A stretch of 48,425 nt of DNA from assembly GCA_011390475.1 (NCBI GenBank), contig JAABSG010000001.1:1-48425 (forward strand). Direction: 5' to 3'. The translations under genes and the position numbers were made by a program. The notes under the pieces are model-generated. The model was not told the origin of the DNA. It saw only the letters and a list, made by a program, of their open reading frames with translations, and ran no database searches. Below, piece by piece: positions 38,101-44,972 of the stretch (its first letter is position 1; each line of letters opens with the position of its first letter). The DNA is from Geminicoccaceae bacterium (GTDB lineage Bacteria; Pseudomonadota; Alphaproteobacteria; Geminicoccales; Geminicoccaceae).

Positions 38101-38156
38101 GTGGGGCGTGGGGAGGTGTCGCCTCCCCACATCTTCTTGTTTTTATTGGCTTTTTT
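38101..38156 (+). repeat. repeat-family copy A: hairpin plus T-rich tail, oriented as a plus-strand terminator
   Basis: GTGGGGAGG-tgtcg-CCTCCCCAC (38108-38130) followed by ATCTTCTTGTTTTTATTGGCTTTTTT. Lies immediately after the mcd stop but in the opposite orientation. Confidence 0.5.
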
Positions 38157-39828
38157 AGCTTTCCAGCAGCCGCCTGGCGATGACCTGGGCCTGGATCTCG
38201 GCGGCGCCTTCGAAGATGTTGAGGATGCGGGCGTCGCAGAGCACGCGGCTGATCGGATACTCGATCGCGTAGCCGTTGCCACCGTGGATCTGGAGCGCGT
38301 TGTCGGCGGTGGCCCAGGCGACTTGGGCGGCAAGCAGTTTGGCGAGGCCGGCCTCCAGGTCGCAGCGCCGCTCGGCGTCCTTTTCGCGGGCCGAGAAGAG
38401 GGTGAGCTGGCGGGCGATCTGCACCTCGACCGCCATCCAGGCGAGCTTGCCGGAAACACGGGGGAAGGCCGTGAGCGGCTTTTTGAACTGGATGCGGTCC
38501 TTGGCGTAGGCGAGGCCGAGCTCGAGGGCGTTTCTGGCCACGCCGACGGCGCGGGCGGCGGTCTGGATCCGCGCCCCTTCGAAGGTGGCCATGAGCTGCT
38601 TGAAGCCTTGGCCTTCGACGCCGCCCAGGAGATTGTCGCCGGCGACCCTGAAGCCATCGAAGCCCAGGGTGTATTCCTTCATGCCGCGATAACCCAGGAC
38701 CTCGATTTCGCCGCCGCTGAGGCCGTCGACCGGGAAGGGATCGGCGTCGGTGCCGCGGGGTTTTTCCGCGAGCAGCATGGAGAGGCCCTTGTAGCCGGCC
38801 TCCTCGGGGCGGGTGCGGCAGAGCACGGTCATGAGATCGGCTCGGGCGGCGTGGGTGATCCAGGTCTTGGCGCCGGTGATCGTCCAGCCGTCCGCATCGC
38901 GGACCGCCCGGGTTTTCAGGGACGCCAGGTCTGAGCCGGTGTCGGGTTCGGTGAAGACGGCTGTCGGGATGATCTCGCCGGACGCGACCTTCGGCAGGAA
39001 GCGCTCTTGCTGCTCGGCGGTGCCGCCGAGGCGGATCAGCTCGCCCGCGATTTCCGAGCGGGTGGAGAGCGAGCCCACGCCGATATAGCCGCGGGAGAGT
39101 TCCTCGGTCACGACGCACATCGCCACCTTGCCCAGGCCGAGGCCGCCGAATTCTTCGGGCAGGGTCAGGCCGAACACGCCGAGCTCGGCCAGTTCCTCGA
39201 TCAGCGGCAGCGGAATGAGCTCGTCGCGCTCGTGCCAGCCATGGGCGTGGGGGATCACCTTGTCGTCGCTGAAGCGTTGGAACTGTTCCCTGATCATGTC
39301 CAGGGTTTCGTCGCCGAGCGCCCACTGGCCGAAATCGCCCTCGTCGATGAGCTCGGCGATGCGGGCGCGGGTCACTGCCGTATTGCCGCCTTGAATGAGC
39401 GAGCGGACGGCGGGGTCGCTGGTGAAGGCCTGGATGGCGGCCTCACCCAGATAGAGATCGCGGGGGCGCACGACCTCGACCTGGCTCATCGGGATGCCGC
39501 CCTGGATGCGCGCCAGATACTCGCCGAAGGCGGCCTCGAGCATCAGCCGTTCGAGCTCACCGAGGCTGCCCTCGCCGTCCAGCCGTTCGGCCCAGCCGCG
39601 CATCTGGCGCAGGGCCTGACGGTAGACCTCGAGCCAGGCGAGGCCGTGCGCCGCGAACTGCTCCTGGTCGAGCAGGGCTGCATCGATGCGGCCGGTGGGG
39701 GCGACGACGCGGCGGACGGCGTCCTTGGCCGCATCGAACAGCTGGTCGGTGGCCGCGAGGGCGGCCGCCGTCTGCGTCCAGATATCGCCCGAGGGCGCGG
39801 TCTCGACGGTTGATAGGGCGATGGCCAA
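38155..39828 (-). CDS. mcd: (2S)-methylsuccinyl-CoA dehydrogenase (acyl-CoA dehydrogenase with about 170-aa N-terminal extension)
   Basis: 557 aa. The acyl-CoA dehydrogenase core (TEPDTGSDLASLKT, GAKTWITHA, QIHGGNGYAIEYPISR) is preceded by the long N-terminal extension characteristic of Mcd. Sits directly downstream of ccr. TTG start 3 nt after the ccr stop, with GGAGGA upstream. Confidence 0.8.
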   Translation of the reverse strand: MAIALSTVETAPSGDIWTQTAAALAATDQLFDAAKDAVRRVVAPTGRIDAALLDQEQFAAHGLAWLEVYRQALRQMRGWAERLDGEGSLGELERLMLEAAFGEYLARIQGGIPMSQVEVVRPRDLYLGEAAIQAFTSDPAVRSLIQGGNTAVTRARIAELIDEGDFGQWALGDETLDMIREQFQRFSDDKVIPHAHGWHERDELIPLPLIEELAELGVFGLTLPEEFGGLGLGKVAMCVVTEELSRGYIGVGSLSTRSEIAGELIRLGGTAEQQERFLPKVASGEIIPTAVFTEPDTGSDLASLKTRAVRDADGWTITGAKTWITHAARADLMTVLCRTRPEEAGYKGLSMLLAEKPRGTDADPFPVDGLSGGEIEVLGYRGMKEYTLGFDGFRVAGDNLLGGVEGQGFKQLMATFEGARIQTAARAVGVARNALELGLAYAKDRIQFKKPLTAFPRVSGKLAWMAVEVQIARQLTLFSAREKDAERRCDLEAGLAKLLAAQVAWATADNALQIHGGNGYAIEYPISRVLCDARILNIFEGAAEIQAQVIARRLLES

Positions 39829-39831
39829 GGC

Positions 39832-41133
39832 TCAGTCCTCCACCGCTTCCTCGAAGGTGCGCATGCCGGGGCGCTTCGCACTGACCAGCACCGCCATGTT
39901 GCCGGGCTTGTGCTGGTTCTTGAGCATCTTCATGTGGGCGCGGGGAATGTCGGCCCAGCTGAAGACCTCGGACATGCAGGGGTCGACCTGGCGGTCGAGG
40001 ACAAACTTGTTCGCCGCCGAGGCCTGTTTCAAGTTGGCGAAGTGGCTGCCCTGCAGGCGCTTTTGCCGCATCCAGAGGTAGCGGGCGTCGACGGTGAGCT
40101 TGTAGCCGGTGGTGCCGGCACAGATCACCACCATGCCGCCCCGCTTGCAGACCAGGGCGGAGACCGGGAACGTCGAAGCACCCGGGTGCTCGAAGACCAT
40201 GTCGACGTCGTTGCCCTTGCCGGTGATGTCCCAGATCGCCTTGCCGAACTTGCGCGCTTCCTTGACCCAGGCGTTGTAGGCCTCGGTGTCCATGGGATCG
40301 GGCATCTCGCCCCAGCAATTGAAGTCCTTGCGGTTGATCGCCCCCTTGGCCCCGAGCGACAGCACGAACTCGCGCTTGTCCTCCTCGGAGATCACGGCAA
40401 TCGCATTGGCGCCCGAGGCCGCGATCATCTGGATCGCCATGGACCCCAGGCCGCCGGCCCCGCCCCAGACCAGGACGTTGTCGCCGGGCTTGAGGATGTG
40501 CGGCTGGTGACCGAAGAGCATGCGATAGGCGGTGGCCAGGACCAGCGTGTAGCAGGCAGCCTCTTCCCAGGTCAGATGCTTCGGCCGAGGCATCAGCTGG
40601 CGGCTCTGCACCTTGCAGAACTGAGCGAAGGAGCCGTCGGTGGTCTCGTAGCCCCAGATGCGCTGGGAGGGCGAGTTCATCGGATCGCCGCCGTTGCACT
40701 CCTCGTCGTCACCGTCGTCCTGGTTGCAGTGGATGACGACCTCGTCGCCGACCTTCCAGCGCTTGACCTTCGAGCCCACGGCCCAGACGATGCCGGCCGC
40801 ATCGGAGCCCGCCACGTGGTAGGGTTGCTTGTGGACGTCCATGGGCGAGAGCGGGACGCCCAAGGCGGCCCAGACGCCATTATAGTTGACGCCCGCCGCC
40901 ATCACCAGGACCAGCACCTCGTCGTCGCCGATCGCGGGCGTCGGGACCACCTCTTCCAGCATCGAGGTCAGGGGCTCGCCGTGGCGCTCTTTTCTGATGG
41001 CCCAGGCGTACATATTGGCCGGCACGTGGCCCAAGGGCGGGATCTCGCCCACGTCGTAGAGGTCCTTGACGGGGCCGGTGGGGGTCGGCGTCGTCTCCGG
41101 CTTCATCGGAATGACCTGGGCTGTGGACGTCAT
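39832..41133 (-). CDS. ccr: crotonyl-CoA carboxylase/reductase
   Basis: From ATG at 41133, 433 aa: KDLYDVGEIPPLGHVPANMYAWAIRKERHGEP, VMAAGVNYNGVWA, VIHCNQDDGDDEECNGGDPM, GYETTDGSFAQF and HKPGNMAVLV match Ccr closely. The ORF stays open for a further 134 codons upstream; see the HTH feature and findings. Confidence 0.93.
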   Translation of the reverse strand: MTSTAQVIPMKPETTPTPTGPVKDLYDVGEIPPLGHVPANMYAWAIRKERHGEPLTSMLEEVVPTPAIGDDEVLVLVMAAGVNYNGVWAALGVPLSPMDVHKQPYHVAGSDAAGIVWAVGSKVKRWKVGDEVVIHCNQDDGDDEECNGGDPMNSPSQRIWGYETTDGSFAQFCKVQSRQLMPRPKHLTWEEAACYTLVLATAYRMLFGHQPHILKPGDNVLVWGGAGGLGSMAIQMIAASGANAIAVISEEDKREFVLSLGAKGAINRKDFNCWGEMPDPMDTEAYNAWVKEARKFGKAIWDITGKGNDVDMVFEHPGASTFPVSALVCKRGGMVVICAGTTGYKLTVDARYLWMRQKRLQGSHFANLKQASAANKFVLDRQVDPCMSEVFSWADIPRAHMKMLKNQHKPGNMAVLVSAKRPGMRTFEEAVED

Positions 41134-41454
41134 GGCGGCGACTTTCTCTTTAACGGGTGACGATTGGGCGGCTGACGGTTGCATCTCGTGGCGGGCGGTG
41201 GCCTGTGGCAGCGGCCGGCCATGGGTGCCGGTGGCGAGGGATTCGAAGAACTCGACGGGCGAGAGGTCGATGCCCTCCCGCCTCGCGATGGCGAGCAGCT
41301 CTTCTTGGCGCTTGGCCGGGATGGCACCACGACGGACCCAGCCACTGACAGCGGTCTGCCAGATGCCCAAGAGCTCGGCGACGCGTTGCTGCGAGCCGAA
41401 CTTCTTGATGATGGTCTCGACTTTGTTCGGCTGCACGGCGGAGGTCTGCGGCAT
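41134..41454 (-). CDS. Cro/YdaS-like helix-turn-helix segment, in frame with ccr and lacking its own stop codon
   Basis: ATG at 41454: MPQTSAVQPNKVETIIKKFGSQQRVAELLGIWQTAVSGWVRRGAIPAKRQEELLAIARREGIDLSPVEFF. GC3-rich codon usage runs through ...ARHEM. The last 16 codons before the ccr ATG are GC3-poor. No stop codon separates this segment from ccr. Confidence 0.6.
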
Positions 41455-41524
41455 GGCATTTTGGTCCGTTGCTCTTGCCGGGCTCTCGAGGTGGGCCCGG
41501 TCGGCTCCCGGTGTTGAACATTTG

Positions 41525-41566
41525 CTGCGATGCAAGACAAGTGTTGGAGCGCTTGCTGCATCGCAG
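41525..41566. promoter_or_regulatory. inverted repeat in the ccr-ecm divergent spacer
   Basis: CTGCGATGCAAG-N15-CTTGC(TGC)ATCGCAG. The 12-bp arms are interrupted by a 3-nt insertion in the right arm. Confidence 0.3.
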
Positions 41567-41576
41567 TAGGCTGCTT

Positions 41577-41606
41577 TTGACAGCCATCGATGTCAACACC
41601 ATAAAT
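41577..41606 (+). promoter_or_regulatory. candidate ecm promoter overlapping a 20-bp near-palindrome
   Basis: TTGACA (41577-41582), 18-nt spacer, ATAAAT (41601-41606). TTGACAGCCATCGATGTCAA is palindromic at 8 of 10 pairs and places TTGACA on both strands. Confidence 0.4.
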
Positions 41607-41710
41607 GCTTTGACGGCGGCGCAGCAAGAATGTTAGCGCACGACGCACCGGATTGCGTGCCCTTTCGGCGGCTAGCAATGTGTTGAAGCAACAGAGAAGA
41701 GGTGTTGGAG

Positions 41711-43711
41711 ATGGTCATGAGTGGTGCTGCCAACACTTTACGTGATAAGCCCTGGCTGTTTCGGACCTATGCCGGGCACAGCTCGGCCGCGGCCTCGAAC
41801 ACGCTCTTTCGCACCAATCTGGAGCGCGGCCAGACCGGGCTTTCGGTGGCCTTCGATCTGCCGACGCAGACCGGCTACGACAGCGACCACGCTCTGGCTA
41901 AAGGCGAGGTCGGCAAGGTCGGGGTGCCCGTTACCTCGCTCGACGACATGGAAGTGCTGTTCCGGGACATCCCGTTGGAGCGCATGAACACCTCGATGAC
42001 AATCAACGCCACCGCGCCCTGGCTGCTGGCGCTCTATATTGCCGCGGCCGAGCGGCAGGGTGTGGATCGCAAGGTGCTGCAGGGCACGGTGCAGAACGAC
42101 ATCATCAAGGAGTATTTGAGCCGCGGCACGTACATCTTCCCCCCTGCCCCATCGCTCCGCCTGATCGCCGATGTGGTGGCCTTCACGTATAAAGAAGTGC
42201 CGAAGTGGAATCCGACCAACGTCTGCTCCTACCATCTGCAGGAGGCGGGTGCGACGCCGGTGCAGGAGCTGGCTTATGCGCTGGCCACGGCCATTGCCGT
42301 GCTCGATGCGATCAAGGCGGGCGGGCAGGTGCCGGACGAGGACTTTCCGACCGTGGTCGGGCGGATCAGCTTTTTCGTCAATGCCGGCATCAAGTTCGTG
42401 ACCGAGCTCGCCAAGATGCGGGCCTTCGTCGATCTCTGGGACGCCATCGCCCGTGACCGCTACGGGGTCGAGGACGAAAAGCTCCGGCGCTTTCGCTACG
42501 GCGTGCAGGTGAATTCGCTGGGCCTCACCGAGCAGCAGCCGGAGAACAACGTCTATCGCATTCTCTTGGAGACCCTGGCCGTCACGCTCTCGAAAAAGGC
42601 CCGCGCCCGGGCCGTGCAACTTCCCGCCTGGAACGAGGCCCTGGGGCTGCCGCGACCGTGGGATCAGCAATGGTCGTTGCGCTTGCAGCAGATCCTGGCG
42701 CTCGAGACGGACCTGCTCGAGTACGGCGACATCTTCGACGGCAGCCATGTCATGGATGCCAAGGTCGAGGCGTTGAAGGCTGAGGCTACGGCCGAGCTCG
42801 CGCGGATCGATGCGCTGGGCGGGGCCCTCGCCGCGGTCGACTCCGGCTACATGAAGAGCCGGCTTGTCGAGAGCAGTGCGCTGCGCGTGCAAGCGATCGC
42901 GTCCGGGGCGCAGAAGGTCGTGGGGGTCAATTGCTACACCGAGACCGCCCCCTCGCCGCTCACCACGGGCGAGGATGGCGGGTTCATGACGGTCGATCCC
43001 AAGGCGGAGGCGGAGCAGATCGAGCGGCTCCAGGCGCACCGGGCGCGGCGCGACGGGGCTGCGGCAGCAGCGGCCCTTGTCGAACTCGAGGCCGCGGCCA
43101 GGGAAAGCCGCAACGTCATGCCGGCCTCGATATCTTGCGCCCATGCCGGGGTCACCACGGGCGAATGGGCCGAGACGCTGCGCCGCGTGTTCGGCGAGTA
43201 TCGCGCCCCCACCGGCATTGCCGGAGCCGACACCAAGGGTGACGACGACGCTTTGGCGCCGGTGCGCGCCAAGGTCGATGCGCTGGCGGCGGCAACGGGC
43301 CGGCGGCTGAAGATCCTGGTCGGCAAGCCCGGGCTCGACGGGCATTCCAACGGGGCCGAGCAGATCGCGGTCGCGGCCAGGGATTCCGGCATGGAGGTGG
43401 TCTACGAGGGTATCCGGCTGTCACCGGCCCGGATCGTCGGCACGGCGCTCGAGGAGGCGGTGCACGTGGTCGGGCTCTCGATCCTCTCGGGCTCGCATCT
43501 GCCCTTGGTCAAGGAGGTGCTGGAGCGCATGCGCCAGACCGGCATCGGCGACATCCCGGTCGTCGTCGGCGGCATCATCCCGCCCGACGACAAACAGGCG
43601 CTCTTGGCCATGGGCGTCGCCCGCGTCTACACGCCCAAGGACTTCGCGATCGCTCGGATCATGGACGACATCGCGGACATCGTGACGGCGGCCGAGAGCA
43701 AGGCTGCTTAA
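41711..43711 (+). CDS. ecm: ethylmalonyl-CoA mutase (B12-dependent acyl-CoA mutase family, fused catalytic and B12-binding domains)
   Basis: About 666 aa. KPWLFRTYAGHSSA, GLSVAFDLPTQTGYDSDH, MTINATAPWLLALYIAAAERQG and the C-terminal B12 domain GKPGLDGHSNGAEQIA. Divergent from ccr, as with meaA/ecm in Rhodobacter. The start could be GTG 41702, ATG 41711 or ATG 41717. Confidence 0.88.
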   Translation: MVMSGAANTLRDKPWLFRTYAGHSSAAASNTLFRTNLERGQTGLSVAFDLPTQTGYDSDHALAKGEVGKVGVPVTSLDDMEVLFRDIPLERMNTSMTINATAPWLLALYIAAAERQGVDRKVLQGTVQNDIIKEYLSRGTYIFPPAPSLRLIADVVAFTYKEVPKWNPTNVCSYHLQEAGATPVQELAYALATAIAVLDAIKAGGQVPDEDFPTVVGRISFFVNAGIKFVTELAKMRAFVDLWDAIARDRYGVEDEKLRRFRYGVQVNSLGLTEQQPENNVYRILLETLAVTLSKKARARAVQLPAWNEALGLPRPWDQQWSLRLQQILALETDLLEYGDIFDGSHVMDAKVEALKAEATAELARIDALGGALAAVDSGYMKSRLVESSALRVQAIASGAQKVVGVNCYTETAPSPLTTGEDGGFMTVDPKAEAEQIERLQAHRARRDGAAAAAALVELEAAARESRNVMPASISCAHAGVTTGEWAETLRRVFGEYRAPTGIAGADTKGDDDALAPVRAKVDALAAATGRRLKILVGKPGLDGHSNGAEQIAVAARDSGMEVVYEGIRLSPARIVGTALEEAVHVVGLSILSGSHLPLVKEVLERMRQTGIGDIPVVVGGIIPPDDKQALLAMGVARVYTPKDFAIARIMDDIADIVTAAESKAA

Positions 43712-43955: not shown

Positions 43956-44972
43956 TCAGTAGTAAGTGCGTGCGTCGATCGGTGTTTCGTCGATGCGATG
44001 GGTGATCTCGGCCAGGAGCGCTTGTTCGGCGCGGTTGCAGCGGGCGGCCGGGTTGGCGACGACGTGAACGTCGATGGCCGGGGGGTCGTCGTAGGGCGGC
44101 AGGCGCCAGAGCTGACCGTCCTCGACGTCGCGGCGGACGACGTGAATTGGCAACGGGCCGATGCCGAGGCCGGCGATGATCAGCCGGCGGACTTCTTCGA
44201 GATGCGGTGAGGTGGCGACCACCCGGTCCTCGAGCCCGAGCGACGCGCGCAGGATGGCCACCGGGCGAAGCGCGTCGTGCATCTGGTCGGTGACGAAGGA
44301 GACCGAGGCCTCGCCGGCGAGGTCTCTGGCCTCGACGCCGGTACGGCCGAAGAACTCGTGGCCCGGGCCGCAGAAGAGGCCAAAAAACTCGCGGTAGAGT
44401 CTTCGGTAGTCGAGCTTCGGGCTCTTCTCGTGGACGAGGCAGACGGCAAAGCTGCTGCGCCGGGCCAGCACGCTCTCGATCGCATAGCGGCTGCTCATGA
44501 CGTCGATCGAGAGCGTCGCCTTGGGGTGGCGACTGTGGAAGGCGGCGAGGGCGGCATCGAAGAGCGGGCAGACGACGTGGCTCGCCATGGCGATCCGCAC
44601 ATGGCCCTGCACCTCCTCCTTGATCTCGCGCATGGCCGTGTCGAGGCGGAGGATGGCCCCTTGGATGTCGACTGCCTCACGGTAGAGCTCGTGGCCGGCT
44701 TCGGTCAGCGCGAAACGGCCGGGGCCGCGGTCGAGCAGGCGGCGGCCGAGCCGGGCTTCGAGGCGCTTGAGGGCATTCGAGACGGTCGGCTGCTTGAGCC
44801 GGAGCCGTTCGGCGGCGGCGGTGACGCTCTCGGCCTCGGCCAAGGCGATGAAGGTGCGGAGCAGGTTCCAGTCGAGCTCGCGGGCGAGCCGCTCGGCCCG
44901 GTCGGTGGGCGCGGGCTCGGGGCGTGGCACGGTGTCGAGGGCGGGCTCGGGCGGTCTGGCCATGGTCACCAT
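43956..44972 (-). CDS. LysR family transcriptional regulator
   Basis: 338 aa. HTH LDWNLLRTFIALAEAESVTAAAERLRLKQPTVSNALKRLEARLG followed by a LysR substrate-binding domain. Divergent from the ABC transporter operon. Confidence 0.9.
   Translation of the reverse strand: MVTMARPPEPALDTVPRPEPAPTDRAERLARELDWNLLRTFIALAEAESVTAAAERLRLKQPTVSNALKRLEARLGRRLLDRGPGRFALTEAGHELYREAVDIQGAILRLDTAMREIKEEVQGHVRIAMASHVVCPLFDAALAAFHSRHPKATLSIDVMSSRYAIESVLARRSSFAVCLVHEKSPKLDYRRLYREFFGLFCGPGHEFFGRTGVEARDLAGEASVSFVTDQMHDALRPVAILRASLGLEDRVVATSPHLEEVRRLIIAGLGIGPLPIHVVRRDVEDGQLWRLPPYDDPPAIDVHVVANPAARCNRAEQALLAEITHRIDETPIDARTYY

Follow-up and report, generated by a model that had tools for sequence, protein, structure and literature searches.

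An in-frame fusion of a phage Cro-type helix-turn-helix domain to crotonyl-CoA carboxylase/reductase in Geminicoccaceae, a candidate enzyme-regulator of the ethylmalonyl-CoA pathway

The DNA analyzed here, referred to as the window, is a stretch of 48,425 nucleotides from a Geminicoccaceae bacterium (assembly GCA_011390475.1, contig JAABSG010000001.1). On its minus strand, at 39832..41454, it carries one open frame of 540 amino acids in which a helix-turn-helix (HTH) domain, a linker, and a crotonyl-CoA carboxylase/reductase (Ccr) follow one another. As the signature enzyme of this pathway, the ethylmalonyl-CoA pathway, Ccr ranks among the fastest CO2-fixing enzymes known and is widely used in synthetic CO2-fixation cycles. 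In the translation of the window, the frame has no stop from 41535 down to the TGA at 39832-39834. Initiation at ATG 41454 yields 540 residues and initiation at ATG 41133 yields 433, the canonical length of Ccr; as a preliminary description of the locus had noted, there are no in-frame stops between the two. An alternative start, GTG 41436, is the counterpart of the ATG used in most relatives, and the entry for this contig in a public protein collection is the 540-residue form. The same description had remarked on atypical codons near the junction, and indeed the GC content of third codon positions (GC3) dips to 0.65-0.70 across ~41205-41145, coming down from 0.85-0.95. With a GC content of 67.8% in the window, and with a +2 linker frame that is likewise free of stops in 11 of 15 relatives, the open frame by itself is weak evidence. 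The fusion therefore had to be tested by comparison.

The catalytic body of Ccr comprises residues 125-540 (39835..41082, minus strand). Residues 108-540 match the TIGR01751 equivalog model with 621.1 bits (cutoff 378.55), over model positions 3-397 of 398, and the Pfam domains ADH_N (63.6 bits) and ADH_zinc_N (66.1 bits) make up the two-domain architecture of medium-chain dehydrogenases/reductases. The Ccr of Methylobacterium extorquens (PDB 4gi2) is matched with 760 bits and an E-value of 4.5e-228, residues 18-432 of the 433-residue part aligning with residues 12-425. Going by this high similarity, the residues of the CO2 pocket and of the catalytic site are likely to be conserved. The equivalog score and the match to 4gi2 together rule out a degenerate Ccr serving as a sensor domain.

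The N-terminal module is an all-alpha HTH domain of the Cro type, at residues ~10-70 (41245..41427, minus strand). Its kinship to Cro and YdaS proteins, read at first from the letters alone, was confirmed by profile searches along with the identity of the Ccr part. Residues 1-107 match Pfam PF14549 P22_Cro (35.2 bits; gathering threshold 30.2), PF15943 YdaS_toxin (31.6 bits; gathering threshold 30), and the NCBIfam model NF046037 "carph-isopro domain" (65 bits; cutoff 38), the last over all its positions (1-54 of 54). AlphaFold2 predicts helices at residues 11-19, 22-29, 33-42, 47-60, and 67-70, with predicted local distance difference test values (pLDDT) of 83-90, in an overall range of 82-93; the C-terminal end of the domain reads GIDLSPVEFF. 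The best Foldseek matches of this model are 3bd1, 5w8y, 6on0, 2hin, and 1rzs, with probabilities of 0.89-1.00 and template modelling (TM) scores of 0.51-0.69. Their E-values are weak (at least 0.009), as expected for a domain of 60 residues. With 3bd1 the root-mean-square deviation is 1.4 Å over 49 columns. By both sequence and fold, the nearest solved structures are thus all-alpha phage Cro proteins: the Cro of Xylella Xfaso-1 (3bd1), that of N15 (including its operator complex), and that of P22. The predicted recognition helix, IWQTAVSGWVRRG, belongs to a WQTAVSGWxRRG stretch and is almost invariant across the family. In an alignment of 50 sequences (71-93% identical overall), ~28 columns of the HTH are invariant, those of the recognition helix included. 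Judged from this alignment, the HTH is conserved as strongly as the enzyme, and the purifying selection acting on it matches that on Ccr.

An exhaustive search returned 567 relatives of the HTH module. Most are stand-alone proteins of 65-100 amino acids that match it end to end, including a C-terminal GIxLxPxDFF. Two of these were viewed in genome context; both lie in prophage regions, divergent from an HTH_3+Peptidase_S24 (CI/LexA-type) repressor gene, which is the classic position of cro. Stand-alone relatives of 65-95 amino acids are free small proteins at the cro position of a phage immunity region, whereas the module of the window forms the N-terminal end of Ccr. Because it is fused to Ccr within a metabolic gene cluster, we regard it as a Cro-family domain and not as a phage Cro gene; its end-to-end match to free proteins indicates that a complete Cro-family protein was recruited onto Ccr. 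No homologues were found by tblastn among 50,697 phage records, and comparison with PHROGs gave generic repressor families and nothing more specific. Related modules also occur at the N-termini of other proteins. They are present in alphaproteobacterial Mitofilin/Mic60-like proteins of 485-616 amino acids (P0097, P0111, P0113, P0124), where they are 34-42% identical to the HTH of the window and carry the motif FGGIRPMAxKLGVPVTTVQGWKKRGAIP; a domain of DNA-binding type is unexpected on a Mic60 homologue. Further cases are a YjeF_N (NAD(P)HX epimerase-type) enzyme (P0026) and phage P63C-domain proteins (P0034, P0055, P0131), and two proteins (P0019, P0029) are tandem arrays of 5-8 Cro-like HTHs each. 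The Cro-like module thus seems, from these architectures, to be prone to fusion.

The HTH and the enzyme are separated by a low-complexity linker of ~55 amino acids, residues 71-124 (41083..41244, minus strand). The AlphaFold2 model (pLDDT <50 for residues 72-144) suggests that it is probably disordered. We scanned one genome per species with the 540-residue protein as query, which returned 80 ccr loci. An HTH is present at 17 of these, belonging to metagenome-assembled genomes (MAGs) of Geminicoccaceae, Benzoatithermus flavus, Arboricoccus pini, and MAGs of unclassified Alphaproteobacteria; it is absent from all 59 of the ccr loci examined outside the Geminicoccaceae. HTH and Ccr share a single uninterrupted frame at 14 of the 17 loci. 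Three further loci, among them that in the complete genome of Marinivivus vitaminiproducens (L090), are intact and have a divergent ethylmalonyl-CoA mutase-like gene (ecm), which brings the clean loci to 17. The fusion is intact in the isolates B. flavus (L013), A. pini (L016), and M. vitaminiproducens, all three of them Geminicoccaceae; every short-read MAG, the isolates, and a complete genome have the fused form. At the protein level, the P22_Cro+ADH_N+ADH_zinc_N architecture recurs in more than 115 clusters (90% identity) of 519-565 amino acids from JGI, ENA, NCBI, and Logan, with M. vitaminiproducens and two MAGs from hot springs, HR39 and HR40, among the sources.

The linker itself varies among relatives in length and in sequence, and in clean loci it is never out of frame. 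We found 25 different distances between HTH and Ccr among 45 fused proteins, all of them frame-preserving. No stop interrupts the fused frame of the linker in any of 15 relatives, and its GC content at the three codon positions in this frame is 0.77/0.64/0.83, highest at the third, which speaks for translation in the fused frame. A chance open frame in GC-rich DNA is ruled out by the shared frame across 25 linker lengths; that every clean relative keeps it despite such varied linkers is, on these comparisons, beyond chance. The fusion is thus a family-wide trait of the Geminicoccaceae, and its distribution indicates that a Cro-like gene was joined to ccr in the ancestor of the family. The earlier suggestion of a regulator gene that had lost its stop codon holds, then, in the sense of an ancient fusion, and fails in the sense of a recent lesion or a pseudogene. 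Many, not all, of the fused proteins have a motif of the form (A/D)-T/G-G-T-H/D-G-(R)-P (GTHG) after the HTH, located at ~41224-41244 in the window. It was not seen in the aligned stand-alone Cro relatives, and may be a docking or hinge element.

The genes around the fusion are those of the same pathway. Divergent from HTH-ccr lies ecm (41702..43711, plus strand), a gene for a B12-dependent acyl-CoA mutase with methylmalonyl-CoA mutase family domains, and this arrangement is kept at all fused loci. On the other side, the gene for an acyl-CoA dehydrogenase of 557 amino acids (38155..39828, minus strand) starts 4 nt after the ccr stop; its product has an N-terminal extension of ~170 amino acids before the ACAD domains. 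We take it to be a methylsuccinyl-CoA dehydrogenase (mcd), for which such an extension is expected. The mcd-like gene is probably co-transcribed with ccr, and its position and extension support an ethylmalonyl-CoA pathway operon, ccr-mcd, with a divergent ecm. Just past ecm and convergent with it, a LysR-family regulator gene (43956-44972, minus strand) is an alternative or additional candidate regulator.

Between ecm and HTH-ccr lies a divergent control region (41455..41701), marked by five copies of the hexamer CAACAC/GTGTTG at 41511-16, 41541-46, 41594-99, 41680-85, and 41702-07. Out of 20 copies in the 48-kb window, 6 fall within 41511-41731, where 0.12 would be expected per 300 nt, and this is the sole cluster in the window. 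The 300 nt upstream of 15 fused genes hold 53 copies versus 2.7 expected (~20-fold), with the hexamer present in all 15. At the 59 ccr loci without an HTH the count is zero in 51, one in 8, and two or more in none. In most of the family, two CAACAC copies build a 17-bp palindrome, GTGTTGAC-N-GTCAACAC (full form GTGTTGACAGTCAACAC), whose position is fixed at ~55-65 nt ahead of the start codon and which contains a -35-like TTGAC(A). With at most three mismatches it occurs at this position in 13 of 21 loci (frequency in shuffles 0.001); with at most two, there were 10 hits in 839 kb searched, every one at the fixed position. It is absent from the 59 loci lacking the HTH. In the subclade of the window (the window and L001-L005), the conserved left half GTGTTGAC (41592..41599, minus strand), with its -35-like TTGAC(A) box facing HTH-ccr, is accompanied by extra CAACAC copies downstream, and the right half GTCAACAC is lost. 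Facing ecm, a conserved TTTGACGGC (41609..41617, plus strand; the CGTCAAAGCATTT block on the other strand) contains a -35-like TTGACG. It is conserved in 14 of 15 aligned intergenic regions, and we infer a promoter role for it. The CAACAC repeats and the palindrome together constitute a candidate operator of the HTH.

Palindromes at 41525-41606 had been singled out in the preliminary description. They proved to be partly lineage-specific, the conserved elements being the TTGAC half-palindrome at 41592-41599 and the CAACAC repeats. A perfect 10-nt inverted repeat, CTGCGATGCA/TGCATCGCAG (41525-41534 and 41557-41566), flanks one CAACAC copy in the HTH-ccr leader. As an RNA hairpin it has a folding energy of -25.5 kcal/mol (z -2.3), and the closest relative (L002) does not share it. 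The leader gave no Rfam match above noise; with that, and with a hairpin of this z-score that is unconserved, a known RNA element such as a B12 riboswitch for ecm was ruled out. We also considered an operator common to the prophage relatives and rejected it, as the prophage cI-cro regions have other repeats. At three prophage cro loci (L087, L088, L089), followed downstream by GapR, GcrA, RusA, and MT-A70 genes, the cI-cro intergenic regions contain promoter-like TTGACAATATCGCG...GCGCTAA blocks and repeats of their own, unlike CAACAC.

The locus encodes a conserved two-module protein in which a Cro-type HTH, domesticated from phage, is connected to an entire Ccr through 40-80 residues of flexible linker, and we consider it probable that this protein is an enzyme-regulator of ccr-mcd and ecm, with DNA binding and ligand control as its predicted properties. 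This corresponds to the long HTH-Ccr isoform of trigger-enzyme type that the preliminary description had listed among its readings; it is now the best supported, given the family-wide fusion, the purifying selection on the HTH, species without an internal start, and the co-occurring candidate operator. The HTH would bind the CAACAC/GTGTTG repeats of the divergent promoter region between ecm and HTH-ccr-mcd, and HTH-Ccr would thereby autoregulate its own operon along with ecm, its probable second target. In the simplest reading it would act by repression, since palindrome and -35-like TTGAC box overlap. Ccr is tetrameric in its solved structures. The tetrameric enzyme body could supply the oligomerization that small Cro proteins need for two-fold or repeated sites, and the long flexible tethers could accommodate both direct and inverted arrangements of sites. 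In the window and in most relatives, the retained internal ATG (41133) may in addition give a shorter Ccr lacking the HTH, which would lead to mixed tetramers.

The alternatives concern the reality of the fusion, the form in which Ccr is made, and the function of the HTH. Were the open frame the product of a sequencing indel or of a lost stop codon, HTH regulator and ccr would be separate genes, and several contigs at first sight look that way. We inspected 26 HTH-bearing loci and 9 are split (L014, L015, L017, L081-L086). At L014, L015, and L017, three of the 17 HTH loci of the scan, the HTH is out of frame with ccr, and short HTH-only proteins (83-135 amino acids, 74-88% identical) occur on long contigs. 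At each of the first three, however, frameshifts are also present within ecm, within ccr, or in the acyl-CoA dehydrogenase gene that follows (acd), and on the contigs of the HTH-only cases (L081-L086) one of these genes is broken in six of six. All nine are thus frameshifted in adjacent conserved genes, so that a separate, stop-terminated gene in relatives, which the preliminary description had named as grounds for abandoning the fusion, is met only on damaged contigs. Even for the cleanest split case, L082, in which the end of the HTH ORF overlaps ccr in an ATGA, the same lineage supplies an intact fused counterpart (P0230). Several of the spurious split ORFs terminate at the TGA of such a ccr ATGA, with RAPP before the stop. 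The contigs of the split loci bear names of the "contig_N" type, which suggests long reads, with the exception of L086 from JGI, which is equally fragmented. The split loci are best read as an annotation artefact, a spurious "XRE/Cro regulator" of 83-135 amino acids plus a truncated Ccr, arising from G/C homopolymer-rich linkers in error-prone assemblies. Together with the fused state of all short-read MAGs, isolates, and the complete genome, and with a frame preserved at every linker length, this rules out sequencing error or separate genes, and we give almost no credence to an artefact or a recent lesion. A second alternative would refine the enzyme-regulator reading: one ORF could give two products, a 433-residue Ccr from ATG 41133 as the main catalytic species and the 540-residue HTH-Ccr as a minor regulatory isoform, maybe in mixed tetramers. 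The internal ATG (41133-41131, within a feature at 41131..41152, minus strand) stands at the canonical Ccr start as a possible secondary start, with a purine-rich AAAGAGAAAG upstream at 41151-41142. Most fused proteins (35 of 45) retain a Met directly ahead of the conserved SAQVIPL within an otherwise hypervariable linker, CAAGGA-N11-ATG is conserved at six loci (L006, L007, L008, L010, L012, L013), and the GC3 dip falls right before ATG 41133, as it would in an intergenic region or at a ribosome-binding site. Annotation of the start is inconsistent, one Geminicoccaceae Ccr at NCBI (P0290) being called from the short start at 432 amino acids without the HTH, versus more than 115 clusters with it. 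Yet L001, L004, L009, and L016 (A. pini) lack any ATG, GTG, or TTG from the HTH to the Ccr core, and because of this Ccr can be translated there only as the fusion. A linker Met is missing from 5 of the 45 proteins, and the retained Met could be a relic. Moreover, the computed Shine-Dalgarno (SD) energies at internal ATGs (-2.9 to -5.6 kcal/mol, the window's being a weak -2.9) are no better than at random in-frame ccr positions (mean -4.05). Internal initiation, as first proposed, is thus favored by the kept Met and by the AAGGA-like tract of some lineages, and it is not universal. A second, HTH-less product is plausible in many lineages, that of the window included, and we hold the division into a main short and a minor long species to be a serious possibility that falls somewhat short of probable.

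The fusion could also be real and its HTH not bind DNA, serving as a module for protein-protein contacts or localization, or being freed by proteolysis of the linker as a Cro-like regulator made 1:1 with Ccr. Use of related modules outside classic repressors, on YjeF_N, P63C, and Mitofilin/Mic60-like membrane proteins, is in line with this, as are the long disordered linker with its partly conserved GTHG motif and the missing full palindrome in the subclade of the window. On the other hand, the predicted recognition helix is almost invariant, the closest matches in sequence and fold are DNA-binding Cro proteins, and a specific palindrome and repeated motif accompany the HTH, precisely in the promoter region of its gene; nothing points to a protease site for release by cleavage. 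We consider this alternative unlikely. Several observations nevertheless count against HTH-Ccr as a regulator of its own pathway. The association of motif and HTH is phylogenetically non-independent, since the fused loci form one clade, and the motif could serve a different regulator or be plain promoter sequence, as it has a -35-like TTGAC. With the right half of the palindrome gone from the window subclade, most CAACAC copies that are left there form direct repeats, which is unusual for a Cro-type dimer. A strict scan for the sigma-70 consensus called no promoters in the control region of the window, so that the promoter assignments are by eye, and SD signals are weak at both candidate starts. 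That 35 of the 45 proteins still have a Met where Ccr originally began suggests that the short form matters, the fusion perhaps being a minor species. Finally, the AlphaFold2 model of the full fusion gave no confident contact between HTH and Ccr; owing to a shallow alignment the prediction for Ccr was poor (mean pLDDT 55), and the model is silent on such contacts.

The enzyme-regulator reading can be carried further toward a flux sensor, although only tentatively, and we think this extension more doubtful than not. The occupancy of Ccr by crotonyl-CoA or NADPH might, speculatively, modulate DNA binding in the fashion of a trigger enzyme. Up to four tethered Cro domains would bind the palindrome and the CAACAC repeats, and would be released or rearranged when crotonyl-CoA and NADPH engage the enzyme, so that expression of the pathway would be tied to substrate load. 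The ratio of long to short isoforms, determined by the internal start, would set the number of DNA-binding arms per tetramer. If the enzyme-regulator reading is true, the locus is a new case of an enzyme doubling as regulator of its own pathway, and shows central carbon metabolism making use of a Cro module from phage. Studies of how an oligomeric enzyme scaffolds a minimal HTH would gain a compact and testable system, with a single protein, a single 17-bp palindrome, and isolates in culture. There is a practical side as well: annotations disagree on the start site, and in error-prone assemblies from long reads the gene becomes a spurious "XRE regulator" plus Ccr. The fused proteins are named "crotonyl-CoA carboxylase/reductase" in the databases, and none of the source names seen mentions a DNA-binding domain.

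HTH-Ccr resembles the trigger enzymes PutA, BirA, and NadR, and the archaeal RbkR (PMC5397151), in joining DNA-binding and catalytic domains in one predicted polypeptide with a candidate operator at the promoter of its own pathway. It differs in its parts: the HTH is of the phage Cro type and all-alpha, as opposed to the ribbon-helix-helix of PutA and the winged HTH of BirA, and the enzyme is a carboxylase of the medium-chain dehydrogenase/reductase type, from central carbon assimilation. Its modules sit on a long disordered tether and not on a compact interface, and ligand-dependent DNA binding is here speculative. With the canonical Ccr of M. extorquens (4gi2) and R. sphaeroides it shares the enzyme body over its full length and the clustering with ecm and an mcd-like gene. 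Unlike HTH-Ccr, the canonical enzyme has ~430 amino acids and no DNA-binding domain. The ccr gene of M. extorquens is controlled by the TetR-type CcrR; that of the window has no adjoining TetR gene, and a LysR gene lies beyond ecm. To the phage Cro proteins of P22, N15, and Xylella Xfaso-1, the module is linked by its matches to PF14549 and NF046037 above cutoffs and by a fold of four to five helices. Those relatives are free proteins of 60-80 amino acids in prophages, whereas the Geminicoccaceae module is joined covalently to a metabolic enzyme outside any prophage. Their recognition helices differ (IWQTAVSGW in the fusion versus CRQSVIAGW in prophage relatives), as do the candidate operators. 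In the literature on the carph-isopro domain, on Ccr, and on the ethylmalonyl-CoA pathway of Geminicoccaceae, we found no description of a Cro-type HTH on Ccr. Bifunctional enzyme-regulators are already known as a kind, and a Cro-type HTH on Ccr is a new form of it.

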